DNA of 7,198 nucleotides from IMG/VR virus record IMGVR_UViG_2617271072_000001. One strand, given 5' to 3'. The notes under the pieces are model-generated. The model was not told the DNA's origin and did no database searches. It saw only the letters and a program-made list of their open reading frames with translations. The DNA comes from a virus. Lineage: Duplodnaviria > Heunggongvirae > Uroviricota > Caudoviricetes. Position numbers and translations under genes: made by a program. This document shows positions 1 through 5,694 of the stretch, piece by piece. Each line of letters opens with the position of its first letter. The stretch's first letter is position 1.

Positions 1-468
<468 letters not shown>

Positions 469-483
<15 letters not shown>

Positions 484-711
484 AAAAACCAGGTTCGTGC
501 TCATCTTTCCTTCCCGTTCTTCCCTGGTAGCAAACCGGTAATACACCGTTCGCCAGACCTTACCTTCGATAACCAGAAGACCTGCCCGTGCCATTTTAGC
601 CGCGGCCTGATTTATGCTGGTTACTGTTGCGCCTGTTAGCGCGGCAACGTCCGGCGCACAGAAGCTATTATGCGTCCCCAGGTAATGAATAATTGCCTCT
701 TTGCCCGTCAT
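469..711 (-). pseudogene. ren: ren (Rex-exclusion resistance), C-terminal coding region replaced by IS sequence
   Basis: The first ~76 residues (MTGKEAIIHYLGTHNSFCAPDVAALTGATV...) match lambda Ren as recalled; the ORF then ends VVVK-stop inside IS-derived sequence, about 20 residues short. Start codon at 711-709 overlaps the P stop (ATGA overlap), as in lambda. Confidence 0.7.
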
Positions 712-2618: not shown

Positions 2619-2676
2619 ATGTAAGTATTTCCTTAACAAATAAGAAGTTATACGCACCAACTGATGCGCGTTGTAT

Positions 2677-2720
2677 TCCCGCATTTCGGCGGGAATAAGG
2701 ACCATGACTGTTAAAGAGCA
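2677..2720 (-). promoter_or_regulatory. nutR: boxA (TGCTCTTTAA) plus boxB hairpin
   Basis: On the minus strand, boxA TGCTCTTTAA (plus-strand coordinates 2711-2720) is followed after 16 nt by a hairpin UCCCGC-CGAAAU-GCGGGA (2677-2694). The hairpin is identical to the one in nutL. Confidence 0.6.
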
Positions 2721-2992: not shown

Positions 2993-3643
2993 ATGAATAC
3001 ACAACTGATGGGTGAGCGTATTCGCGCTCGCAGAAAAGAACTTAAGATTAGGCAGGCTGCCCTTGGCAAGATGGTTGGCGTGTCTAATGTTGCTATTTCC
3101 CAATGGGAGCGTTCTGAAACTGAGCCCAATGGCGAAAACCTATTGGCTTTAGCCAAGGCTTTACAGTGCTCCCCTGATTACTTGTTGAAAGGAGAAGATA
3201 GTCTTTCAAACATTGCCTATCACAGCAGGCATGATCCAAGAGGTTCGTATCCTCTAATTAGTTGGGTAAGCGCAGGATGTTGGATGGAAGCTGTAGAGCC
3301 ATATCATAAGCGTGCAATAGATAACTGGTACGATACAACCGTAGATTGTTCAGAAGATTCGTTTTGGCTGGACGTAAAGGGTGATTCGATGACGGCTCCA
3401 GCCGGTCTTAGCATCCCGGAAGGGATGATAATACTAGTCGATCCTGAAGTAGAACCTCGTAATGGGAAGCTGGTAGTGGCAAAGCTCGAAGGAGAAAACG
3501 AGGCAACTTTCAAGAAGTTAGTTATTGATGCTGGCAGAAGGTTTCTAAAACCACTTAACCCACAATATCCGATGATTGAGATCAACGGGAACTGCAAAAT
3601 CATCGGTGTAGTTGTCGATGCAAAAATAGCAAACCTTCCATAA
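2993..3643 (+). CDS. c2: C2 repressor, P22 type (216 aa): N-terminal helix-turn-helix, C-terminal LexA-like S24 autopeptidase domain
   Basis: MNTQLMGERIRARRKELKIRQAALGKMVGVSNVAISQWERSE... matches P22 C2 as recalled. Ala-Gly cleavage site in VSAGCW; catalytic Ser in GDSM and Lys in the GKLVVAKL region. Confidence 0.9.
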   Translation: MNTQLMGERIRARRKELKIRQAALGKMVGVSNVAISQWERSETEPNGENLLALAKALQCSPDYLLKGEDSLSNIAYHSRHDPRGSYPLISWVSAGCWMEAVEPYHKRAIDNWYDTTVDCSEDSFWLDVKGDSMTAPAGLSIPEGMIILVDPEVEPRNGKLVVAKLEGENEATFKKLVIDAGRRFLKPLNPQYPMIEINGNCKIIGVVVDAKIANLP

Positions 3644-3807: not shown

Positions 3808-3849
3808 GGCTCTTTAACATTGATGGGATTGTCCCGCCGAAATGCGGGA
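3808..3849 (+). promoter_or_regulatory. nutL: boxA (GGCTCTTTAAC) plus boxB hairpin
   Basis: boxA-like GCTCTTTA at 3809-3816, then after 14 nt a hairpin UCCCGC (3832-3837) / loop CGAAAU / GCGGGA (3844-3849), identical to the nutR hairpin. Confidence 0.6.
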
Positions 3850-3956
3850 ACCAAAGAGTAGTTGGCTTTGGGGTGACGTGAAGTGCAGCTGCACGACGGC
3901 AACCGGAAGATAAGCACCCGGCGCGTCACCGCCAAAGTCAATCATCGGAGGTCAAC

Positions 3957-4229
3957 ATGGCAGTAGTCATTACATATCTGGCTGACGATAACGCCAGAAA
4001 TCGCCGCAGAGCACGCAGACAGGCTCAACGTGAGCAGGCAATGCAAGAACAGCGACTGGCGCGAAAAATTGCGCTAAAGCTCTCTGGTTGCGTCAGAGCA
4101 GACAAAGCAGCATCACTCGGAAGCCTTCGCTGCAAGAAGGCAGATGAATGCAGTGGAAGTATTTGCCTGCCAAACGTAGCCATTTACGCGGCAGGCTACC
4201 GGAAATCAAAACAACTGACGGCGAGATGA
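3957..4229 (+). CDS. N-like transcription antiterminator (P22 gp24 / lambda N family), 90 aa
   Basis: N-terminal arginine-rich motif NARNRRRARRQAQREQ. The C-terminus ...LPNVAIYAAGYRKSKQLTAR resembles the P22 gp24 C-terminus as recalled. First gene downstream of pL and nutL; GGAGG 6 nt upstream of the ATG. Confidence 0.7.
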   Translation: MAVVITYLADDNARNRRRARRQAQREQAMQEQRLARKIALKLSGCVRADKAASLGSLRCKKADECSGSICLPNVAIYAAGYRKSKQLTAR

Positions 4230-4245
4230 TAAATTAATTTGCTAA

Positions 4246-4827
4246 TTACTTGTTTTTGCCATGCTTATCCTGAGCGATAAGTTCATCCATAAGACTGTCT
4301 TTCTTCCCAGCAAACCTAATGTAGCACTCATTTCTATAGCGTTCCGGGATAACAAAACGGTCGATTTCAGGATATCCAGTAGCAGAAGGTACCCGAATAA
4401 GAAGCCCTTTTTCGAGCAATGAGATTGCTTCAGGGCTTCCCTTTTCTGTCTTTAGCTGGTTATTAGCGGCTACAGCGAATGCCAAATACGCTCTTTCTCC
4501 AAGAGTTAACGAATCAAACAAATCTTGCACGTATTTCTCTTCTTTAGATTTGCGCTTCTGAGCAGCGAATATCTCAATTCTTTCAGTCACAGCGTGATAA
4601 GCGGAATTAACAACGCCGTTAAGCACATAGCTAACGCAAAACAACAGGATGTAATACATCCAGTAATGAGGAAGGATTTCTGGATTATGCAGGTTTATCC
4701 ATTCTTTTACGCTTACAGGCATAACAATAATCAATATGATTAGGATGATTAGCATATGAATCAACTGTTTAAGTGTCATTCCTTGCAGGAAAAAATGCAT
4801 TAGTTCCTGCCACCATGAGTTGTTCAT
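4246..4827 (-). CDS. sieB: Superinfection exclusion protein SieB-like membrane protein (193 aa)
   Basis: MNNSWWQELMHFFLQGMTLKQLIHMLIILIILIIVMPV... with two hydrophobic segments, lying between the N-like gene and ea10. Matches lambda/P22 SieB as recalled. Orientation is taken from the ORF itself. Confidence 0.65.
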   Translation of the reverse strand: MNNSWWQELMHFFLQGMTLKQLIHMLIILIILIIVMPVSVKEWINLHNPEILPHYWMYYILLFCVSYVLNGVVNSAYHAVTERIEIFAAQKRKSKEEKYVQDLFDSLTLGERAYLAFAVAANNQLKTEKGSPEAISLLEKGLLIRVPSATGYPEIDRFVIPERYRNECYIRFAGKKDSLMDELIAQDKHGKNK

Positions 4828-5041
4828 CGGCGTTTCTCTTTTGCTCTCTGTAGGGGTGAATAGAGTTTATCCGATTTCTCGCTGTAGGGGTACACGAGAA
4901 CCACCGAGCCTGATGTGGTTAAAAGACAGGCATACTAATAAACACTGCACTGTGTATTCATTCCAACGAGTGAATACACTGAGCAATGTCGCTCGTAACT
5001 AAACAGGAGCCGACTTGTTCTGATTATTGGAAATCTTCTTT

Positions 5042-5067
5042 GCCCTCCAATGTGAGGGCGATTTTTT
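5042..5067 (+). terminator. Intrinsic terminator upstream of ea10
   Basis: GCCCTC (5042-5047), loop CAATGT, GAGGGC (5054-5059), then ATTTTTT. No U-run on the opposite strand, so plus-strand specific. Confidence 0.5.
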
Positions 5068-5087
5068 ATCTGTGAGGATATGAATAG

Positions 5088-5456
5088 ATGTCAAACATCA
5101 AAAAATACATCATTGATTACGACTGGAAAGCATCAATAGAAATTGAAATCGACCATGACGTAATGACAGAGGAAAAACTTCACCAGATTAATAATTTCTG
5201 GTCAGACTCTGAATACCGACTCAATAAACACGGCTCTGTATTAAATGCTGTATTAATCATGCTGGCGCAACATGCTCTGCTTATAGCAATTTCAAGCGAC
5301 TTAAATGCATATGGTGTTGTGTGTGAGTTCGACTGGAATGATGGAAATGGTCAGGAAGGATGGCCTCCAATGGATGGTAGCGAAGGAATAAGAATTACCG
5401 ATATCGATACATCAGGAATATTTGATTCAGATGATATGACTATCAAAGCCGCCTGA
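5088..5456 (+). CDS. ea10: Ea10 (lambda early protein, reported ssDNA-binding), 122 aa
   Basis: MSNIKKYIIDYDWKASIEIEIDHDVMTEEKLHQINNFWSD... matches lambda Ea10 as recalled. GAGGA about 10 nt upstream. Confidence 0.75.
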   Translation: MSNIKKYIIDYDWKASIEIEIDHDVMTEEKLHQINNFWSDSEYRLNKHGSVLNAVLIMLAQHALLIAISSDLNAYGVVCEFDWNDGNGQEGWPPMDGSEGIRITDIDTSGIFDSDDMTIKAA

Positions 5457-5480
5457 GCGCGGCGTTACCGCATACCAATA

Positions 5481-5504
5481 ACGCTTCACTCGAGGCGTTT
5501 TTTC
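5481..5504 (+). terminator. Possible intrinsic terminator between ea10 and cIII
   Basis: ACGCUUC (5481-5487), loop ACUC, GAGGCGU (5492-5498) with one G-U pair, then UUUUU. Confidence 0.4.
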
Positions 5505-5529
5505 GTTATGTATAAATAAGGAGCACACC

Positions 5530-5694
5530 ATGCAATATGCCATTGCAGGGTGGCCTGTTGCTGGCTGCCCTTCCGAATCTTTACTTGAACGAATCACCCG
5601 TAAATTACGTGACGGATGGAAACGCCTTATCGACATACTTAATCAGCCAGGAGTCCCAAAAAATGGATCAAACACTTATGGCTATCCAGACTAA
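5530..5694 (+). CDS. cIII: CIII (inhibitor of FtsH, stabilises CII), 54 aa
   Basis: [54 protein letters not shown] matches lambda CIII as recalled. AAGGAG 7 nt upstream. Confidence 0.85.
   Translation: MQYAIAGWPVAGCPSESLLERITRKLRDGWKRLIDILNQPGVPKNGSNTYGYPD

Follow-up and report, generated by a model that had tools for sequence, protein, structure and literature searches.

Gene order of the window

The window, a stretch of 7,198 nucleotides from a viral record (IMGVR_UViG_2617271072_000001), derives from a lambdoid prophage and takes in its immunity and early-left region. Its orientation is reversed relative to the usual lambda map, and the plus strand of the segment considered here (4828-5087) is consequently the strand transcribed from pL. 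At the left edge, an IS3-family transposase fragment (C-terminal part, with rve domains; 1-414, plus strand) abuts a shortened ren-like open reading frame (ORF) of 80 aa (469-711, minus strand), which has no Pfam match and a C-terminus that we take to be unlike that of lambda Ren. The right arm of the prophage has probably been broken by an IS element and, given this junction of transposase fragment and shortened ORF, the prophage may be defective. Next in window order come P, O, cII, and cro on the minus strand, followed by a P22 c2-like repressor (2993-3643, plus strand), an N-like antiterminator (3957-4229, plus strand), and sieB. Across the 260 bp that form the subject of this work lies ea10 (DUF2528; 5088-5456, plus strand); beyond it are cIII, with a thermoregulator RNA ahead of it, and then kil, gam, bet, and exo.

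Several smaller elements can be read within this frame. Iteron-like repeats (CCCTCGTTTTGAGGGAT and variants) run from about 1860 to 1960 within the O gene and presumably constitute the replication origin. The 20-mer TTCCCGCCGAAATGCGGGAA, a short GC hairpin, occurs identically at 3831-3850 (plus strand, downstream of pL) and at 2676-2695 (minus strand, downstream of cro); the two copies look like boxB of nutL and nutR for a phi-21-like N protein. A second intrinsic-terminator-like hairpin (5480-5499, plus strand) stands between ea10 and cIII, presumably at the position of lambda's next tL2 terminator, and after it comes the cIII thermoregulator RNA (Rfam RF01804, 88.5 bits; 5517-5575, plus strand).

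sieB, Esc, and the promoter PsieB

The sieB gene (4246-4827, minus strand; start codon 4827-4825) encodes 193 aa with a Pfam SieB match at E = 1e-25 and 85% identity to P22 SieB over 191 aa. An internal in-frame start for Esc is present at M25 (ATG at 4755-4753) and corresponds to the esc CDS annotated 72 nt inside sieB in the P22-pbi record (AF527608). Lambda sieB has no detectable similarity to the sieB of the window by tblastn, though both proteins belong to Pfam SieB.

A sieB promoter had been among the suggested contents of the segment, and it is there: the annotated "P sieB" of AF527608 (locus L010, 943-973) maps with identical sequence to 4864-4894 on the minus strand. The -35 hexamer TGTACC (4894-4889) and the -10 hexamer TAAACT (4869-4864) flank a 19-nt spacer, and this TGTACC-N19-TAAACT arrangement, homologous to the mapped P22 promoter, lies at the same distance from the start codon as in P22. 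Counting against it, the -35 is weak and the spacer measures 19 nt. Diverged blocks retain a -10-like hexamer, TAAAAT or TAATCT, as read from the alignment. Transcription of sieB would begin at about 4856-4858; a start near 4857 implies a leader of about 30 nt, for which no structure is predicted. PsieB would then drive sieB on the minus strand in the lysogen.

The sas antisense RNA

The left half of the segment holds more than the promoter. Although the first reading of the sequence saw PsieB as a possibility, it missed the homologue of the P22 sas antisense RNA, whose target would be sieB. The sas RNA and PsieB of P22 go back to Ranade and Poteete 1993 (as cited in PMC12197685 and PMC13397905). 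In P22, sas pairs with the sieB mRNA and shifts translation from SieB to the internal Esc, a switch by which the phage evades the exclusion system that it encodes (PMC12197685).

The P22 sas sequence aligns to 4823-4932 of the window at 96.4% over 110 nt, and the conserved block ends at 4932. The homologue has its first nucleotide at 4823, which lies 5 nt within sieB, and extends out of the gene from there, antisense to the start codon, the Shine-Dalgarno sequence, and the leader; its overlap with the sieB mRNA is about 35 nt if that message starts near 4857. The ends assigned here rest on two P22 lengths: a 127-nt species, given with its sequence in a 2026 paper on the basis of small-RNA-seq coverage (PMC13397905 Table 2), and a size of 105 nt in a 2025 review (PMC12197685 Table 1). 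We place sas at 4823-4927 (plus strand), with the 5' end set by homology to P22A-sas and an approximate 3' end taken from the 105-nt size. The last 16 nt of the 127-nt P22 form are not conserved in the window; sequence past about 4932 differs from P22 sas because ral does not follow there. The 105-nt size would set the 3' end just past a hairpin of the form CCAC-N10-GTGG (4901-4918, plus strand), whose four pairs are invariant in 43 sequences, although the pattern used for the search already specified the loop and the 5' arm, which leaves only the 3' arm as independent evidence. This hairpin is probably the 3' stem-loop of sas.

The likeness to P22 extends to the layout of the whole switch: in both, the RNA is encoded in cis, antisense to the start and leader of sieB, the PsieB -10 and -35 are identical, and an internal Esc start is present. 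The window differs in its host, which is E. coli, and in its SieB, which at 85% identity is not the same protein. By analogy with P22, where the mechanism has been demonstrated, transcription of the early-left strand would allow sas to pair with the sieB leader, Shine-Dalgarno sequence, and AUG. Such pairing would block SieB synthesis and leave the internal Esc start (M25) usable, so that the phage's own SieB would not cut its growth short.

A dedicated sigma-70 promoter for either sas or PreS (the second RNA of the segment, described below) finds no support. The promoter scan returned no sigma-70 promoter-like site on the plus strand at 4750-4980; the sole plus-strand site found, at 4712-4740, is ill-suited to sas because its RNA would cover the esc start. 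Both RNAs are probably cut from the N-antiterminated pL transcript and probably lack promoters of their own.

An 85-bp scaffold comprising PsieB and sas recurs at 4848-4932 in the window, in lambda (L001, 1197-1281; 94%), and in HK446 (L014, 1201-1289), where the block stands ahead of a 164-aa ORF with no Pfam match. This scaffold is common to phages with otherwise dissimilar sieB DNA, and sas looks modular, with a 5' part that does the targeting and differs between alleles and a 3' scaffold that stays constant.

Twin GGGG motifs: hairpin loop or operator

The decamer CTGTAGGGGT occurs at 4848-4857 and 4882-4891, as had been reported from the sequence alone, and nowhere else in the window; with flanks, the two copies can be extended to 17 nt at 88% identity. 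Chance would yield about 0.2 matches at up to one mismatch, and two were reached in 1 of 200 shuffles (a post hoc test). Both copies lie inside sas. Copy 1 (plus strand) covers approximately +1 to +10 of the sieB mRNA, which is made from the other strand, and is perfectly complementary to the start of that message; copy 2 overlaps the PsieB -35 at the DNA level. Comparison with relatives, which had been proposed as a check on the repeats, speaks for their conservation: the GGGG core and a spacing of 32-34 bp are kept in nearly all of some 120 IMG/VR loci, with the motif lacking in 6 loci and copy 1 degraded in a few variants. The copies also occur in matched versions, with CTGTAGGGGT twice in E. 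coli/Salmonella-type blocks and TGTTGGGGA twice in Klebsiella-type blocks.

Copy 2 is embedded in a sas stem-loop at 4876-4900 (plus strand), in which UUCUCG-C-UGUA pairs with UACA-CGAGAA around a GGGG loop (4887-4890). In an RNAalifold consensus of 43 distinct sequences, this hairpin shows two pairs with both partners exchanged in 19 (CG/UA/GC; AU/UA) and three that turn into G.U. The positions of the repeat that change together are the loop-closing pair of the hairpin. A count of G.U pairs leans toward the plus strand as the structured one, to the modest extent of 92% versus 87% of cells paired. A conserved stem at copy 1 was also considered and is not consistently supported: RNAalifold does not favor it, and the short stems that individual sequences can form there do so in differing registers.

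The direct repeats, together with the inverted repeat farther to the right, are best explained as RNA hairpin elements. Their placement does invite a reading at the level of DNA, in which the CTGTAGGGGT copies would be operator-like sites for a regulator of PsieB that represses or loops the promoter, one copy lying over the -35 and the other over the transcription start; such a layout is compatible with the RNA explanation. The annotated PsieB is bracketed by the copies, the spacing is constant at 32-34 bp, and the Klebsiella-type blocks carry the same variant in both copies. An operator is nevertheless unlikely. The co-changing positions amount to the loop-closing base pair of a hairpin, exchanged from A-U to U-A, and further stem positions co-vary or turn to G.U, which is not required of a DNA-binding site. 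No regulator is known, and the block is common to phages with different immunity repressors (lambda, P22, 21-like, HK446), so no phage repressor is an obvious candidate. Of the three functions originally proposed for the segment, the promoter and the small RNA are borne out through near-identity with characterized elements, and the regulator binding site has gained nothing positive in its favor.

Under the RNA explanation, the second copy acquires a possible role. Because copies 1 and 2 share one sequence, the copy-2 loop also complements the sieB mRNA at its 5' end. We hypothesize that the GGGG loop could act as a second nucleation site on the sieB mRNA: the twin GGGG motifs, one cis-complementary (copy 1) and the other exposed in a loop (copy 2), may be alternative nucleation sites for a single 5' CCCC. 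If true, this would explain both why the copies change together and why the 85-bp sas scaffold is constant across unrelated sieB alleles. Loop-to-5'-end antisense pairs are familiar from IS10 RNA-OUT/RNA-IN, which is offered as an analogy only. The likeness is that an antisense loop could nucleate on an unstructured mRNA 5' end, with GGGG facing a 5' CCCC in the present case; the difference is that there is no sequence relationship between the IS10 RNAs and sas.

PreS (LPR1) and the terminator tL2a

The right flank holds the second RNA. LPR1, since renamed PreS, was found by RIL-seq on lambda-infected E. coli (Silverman et al., 10.1101/2024.10.31.621285). According to that preprint, the lambda gene lies between ral and ea10, with tL2a forming the 3' end, and yields species of about 88 and 68 nt that are present only in the lytic cycle and absent in lysogens. 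The RNA depends on Hfq and pairs upstream of the start codon of host dnaN, exposing the ribosome-binding site; it thereby activates dnaN translation and raises beta-clamp synthesis, and it also represses alaS. Its activity supports both the replication of phage DNA and the switch to the lytic cycle, and triplet mutations in its seed, M1 and M2, abolish the regulation of dnaN and alaS, respectively (10.1101/2024.10.31.621285).

The ends of LPR1 can be taken from the cloning and in-vitro-transcription primers, GAGCAATGTCGCTCGTAACT...GAGGGCGATTTTTTA (10.1101/2024.10.31.621285, Table S5), and these boundaries place an 88-nt PreS at 4981-5068 (plus strand) in the window. It matches lambda at 87 of 88 nt with no gaps, the only change being G to A at 5050 in the terminator loop, and so falls within LPR1 as delimited in the preprint (at least 92% identity and at most 3 gaps; 10.1101/2024.10.31.621285). 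The fold has a z-score of -3.85. The seed, TGTTCTGATTATTGGAA (5016-5032, plus strand), as deduced from the seed-deletion and mutagenesis primers, is identical to that of lambda, and both triplets are intact: CTG at 5020-5022 (LPR1-M1, dnaN pairing) and GAA at 5030-5032 (LPR1-M2, alaS pairing).

The 3' end of PreS is formed by the intrinsic terminator tL2a (5040-5067, plus strand), with stem 5040-5047/5054-5061 and a T-run at 5062-5067 (T6). A terminator scan recovers the same stem (5040-5061) and T6, in agreement with the plus-strand terminator first read from the sequence; the small RNA that was suspected to end there is PreS. The homologous hairpin is annotated as "terminator" in HK75, and lambda tL2a (about 33930-33952) has a homologous hairpin and U-run, from which the window differs by one loop substitution.

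PreS thus occupies the same place here as in lambda: it lies on the pL strand directly ahead of ea10 and ends at tL2a. The two contexts differ upstream, where the neighbor is sas/sieB here and ral in lambda, and at position -1 (4980), which is T and not G. From the 87/88 identity and the intact seed, we infer that PreS of the window would serve the same function, activating dnaN during the lytic cycle. Neither sas nor PreS appears to be in Rfam 15, and there is therefore no curated model to score them against; a search with Rfam 15 gave no match at E ≤ 10 within 4828-5087, and the only significant match in the window was RF01804 at 5517-5575.

The absence of ral: two RNA modules joined by 4 bp

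Alignment with lambda by blastn resolves the segment into two stretches of homology. Window 4848-4932 corresponds at 94% to lambda 34480-34396, the 85 bp directly upstream of lambda sieB, and window 4937-5300 corresponds at 99% to lambda 34055-33692, which comprises the ral-ea10 spacer and ea10. The 340 bp between them in lambda (34056-34395, containing ral and orf28) are missing, and the 4-bp mosaic joint TACT (4933-4936) stands where they would be. Queried by tblastn, the whole window gave no significant match to the Ral proteins of lambda and P22 or to lambda orf28 (best E = 0.64). The original prediction that ral is absent accordingly holds; its wording that another segment stands in place of ral does not, since nothing has been substituted and the flanks that bracket ral in lambda are simply joined by 4 bp. 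The sas and PreS modules are direct neighbors owing to the lack of the optional ral cassette, which stands between them in lambda. As judged from these alignments, the break falls precisely between the two RNA modules and shows ral to be an optional cassette inserted exactly there. In relatives such as PhiR11_1, phage 4W, and Salmonella phage 103203_sal4, both flanks are present with ral or another ORF between them.

With both flanks identified, the 260-bp gap between sieB and ea10 very probably consists of two regulatory RNAs that have already been described: sas, together with the sieB promoter, and PreS/LPR1 ending at tL2a. The features of 4828-5087 are real and functional, and the RNA genes, promoter, and terminator are all described in lambda or P22.

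The joint is not peculiar to this prophage. A query of 47 nt across the junction, each side of which is too short to match without the joint, found it in 338 of 5,426 complete E. coli genomes and in 18 phage records, including VT1-Sakai, HK446, and wild lambda-like phages; 9 of 115 IMG/VR PreS loci share the ral-less upstream context of the window. VT1-Sakai (AP000400), 1H12, and Lambda_2E9 are 100% identical across the whole segment, with an identical joint and likewise no ral. Given so many genomes and records with different neighbors, the arrangement must be old and widely spread. One might still suspect that ral was deleted recently and that the segment is a scar without function, for the lambda-homologous flanks are just 4 bp apart. 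We give this reading almost no credence: each flank is a functional module conserved in numerous phages in which the joint never existed, and the joint is itself fixed in the 338 E. coli genomes and 18 phage records despite differing neighbors, as in HK446.

Two known modules set side by side have a practical consequence for annotation. Nothing is annotated between sieB and ea10 in the records of VT1-Sakai (AP000400), 1H12, and Lambda_2E9, and no annotated feature covers the joint segment among phage records in the matches listed. Hundreds of E. coli genomes and several reference phage records leave blank a 260-bp gap that in fact carries two experimentally characterized regulatory RNAs and a promoter.

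A further reading is that the segment encodes a small protein. Its only ORF, of 60 aa (4820-5002), is as first described: it lacks a ribosome-binding site and overlaps the sieB start, which is on the other strand. A coding role for it is extremely improbable, even though its C-terminal 37 residues (24-60) match PHROG 31828 (function unknown) at E = 4e-12, so that some phage annotation pipelines call the ORF. Besides the missing Shine-Dalgarno sequence and the overlap with sieB, the ORF starts with TTG and runs across the mosaic joint. Across the roughly 120 loci, its frame is open for 0-94 codons depending on context, for at most 16 aa in most, and the stop is lost in 9; it has no Pfam match and is not called by PGAP in the identical E. 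coli copy. The conserved nucleotides are accounted for by the two RNAs. With no Pfam match, no conserved frame, and no PGAP call, we reject the protein-coding reading despite the PHROG match, and the segment can be treated as non-coding, as it was from the outset.

A conserved hairpin ahead of PreS and a portable cassette

The inverted repeat GTGTATTCA/TGAATACAC, noticed at the start as a perfect 9-bp match, is real, and structure prediction on the segment extends it, as RNA, to a perfect 12-bp hairpin with the 4-nt loop CAAC (4952-4963/4968-4979, plus strand). The hairpin ends 1 nt before the PreS 5' end and has a fold z-score of -4.9 alone and -5.8 in context. A longer, 22-bp stem of the RNase III type (4942-4989) was rejected: its lower part is not conserved in most upstream contexts, and only the 12-bp hairpin is.

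Conservation was judged in the 115 IMG/VR loci that contain the PreS seed, which yield 56 distinct cassette sequences. The hairpin is conserved in these 115 loci, within a block from about 4947 to about 5062 that is nearly invariant. On either side of the block the sequence changes abruptly in kind: upstream there are at least 8 unrelated classes, preceded by unrelated ORFs, and downstream at least 4. PreS and the hairpin ahead of it hence travel as a sharply bounded unit behind at least 8 unrelated genes.

An indication that it is the fold that matters comes from a natural exchange of the stem. In 5 of the 56 distinct cassettes (L025, L041, L067, L084, and L090), the usual arms GTGTATTCATTC/GAGTGAATACAC are replaced by TATAGCAGATT/AGTCTGCTATG; the swapped stem folds equally well at the same position (-14.9 versus -15.7 kcal/mol), and identity resumes at the PreS 5' end. 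Counting pairs in a fixed register gives four pairs changed on both sides, a figure that understates the swap because the loop is shifted by one column; independent folding is the better evidence here. The sequences with the swapped stem form a single lineage and therefore represent one evolutionary event. An unrelated stem that still pairs at the same position implies that structure, not sequence, has been kept. Conservation of the hairpin as a structure seems to be new, as does the movement of hairpin, sRNA, and terminator as one portable cassette. Position 4980, at -1 of PreS, is T in the window. The remaining ral-less loci and those with the swapped stem share this T; most other sequences have G there, and one has A.

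The inverted repeat could alternatively act as DNA, whether as a recombination signal at mosaic joints, a palindrome bound by protein, or part of a promoter for PreS. In favor of this, only 5-15 bp separate the repeat from the left edge of the conserved cassette, where at least 8 different upstream contexts join. We regard a DNA role as very unlikely, though, since five sequences keep pairing with an unrelated stem and use G.U pairs to do so. As for a promoter, no sigma-70-like site was found there by the scan, and the absence of the lambda sRNA from lysogens, together with its appearance on induction, fits an origin at pL.

The lack of a promoter-like site before 4981, combined with the absence of the RNA from lysogens, suggests that PreS is cut from the pL transcript. 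The lambda preprint gives no account of how the 5' end of LPR1 is formed, and the lpr1 deletion used there begins just after the hairpin (10.1101/2024.10.31.621285). A probable role of the hairpin at 4952-4979 is to mark or protect the site of cleavage that generates the 5' end of PreS; it could serve as a processing element or as a 3'-protection element, fixing that end when the RNA is cut from the pL transcript. The stretch from about 4947 to about 5062 would then be a self-contained sRNA cassette, moved by recombination among lambdoid phages. Taken jointly, a hairpin acting as the maturation signal of a portable cassette (~4947-5062) and twin GGGG motifs of sas acting as alternative nucleation sites make up a tentative proposal, which we consider possible and would not put higher than that.

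What is added to the picture drawn from lambda and P22 is modest: a break that falls between RNA modules, a cassette of PreS and hairpin, a covarying hairpin with a GGGG loop, and a shared sas scaffold. Current understanding is not overturned by any of these.

One further locus deserves mention. The IMG/VR locus L072 (5468-5590, minus strand) retains the hairpin together with the 5' stem-loop of PreS and the greater part of its seed. Directly beyond the seed pattern it diverges to a different 3' hairpin rich in GC, GCCGCTCTATATGGGCGG, and may represent a form of PreS whose terminator has been exchanged.
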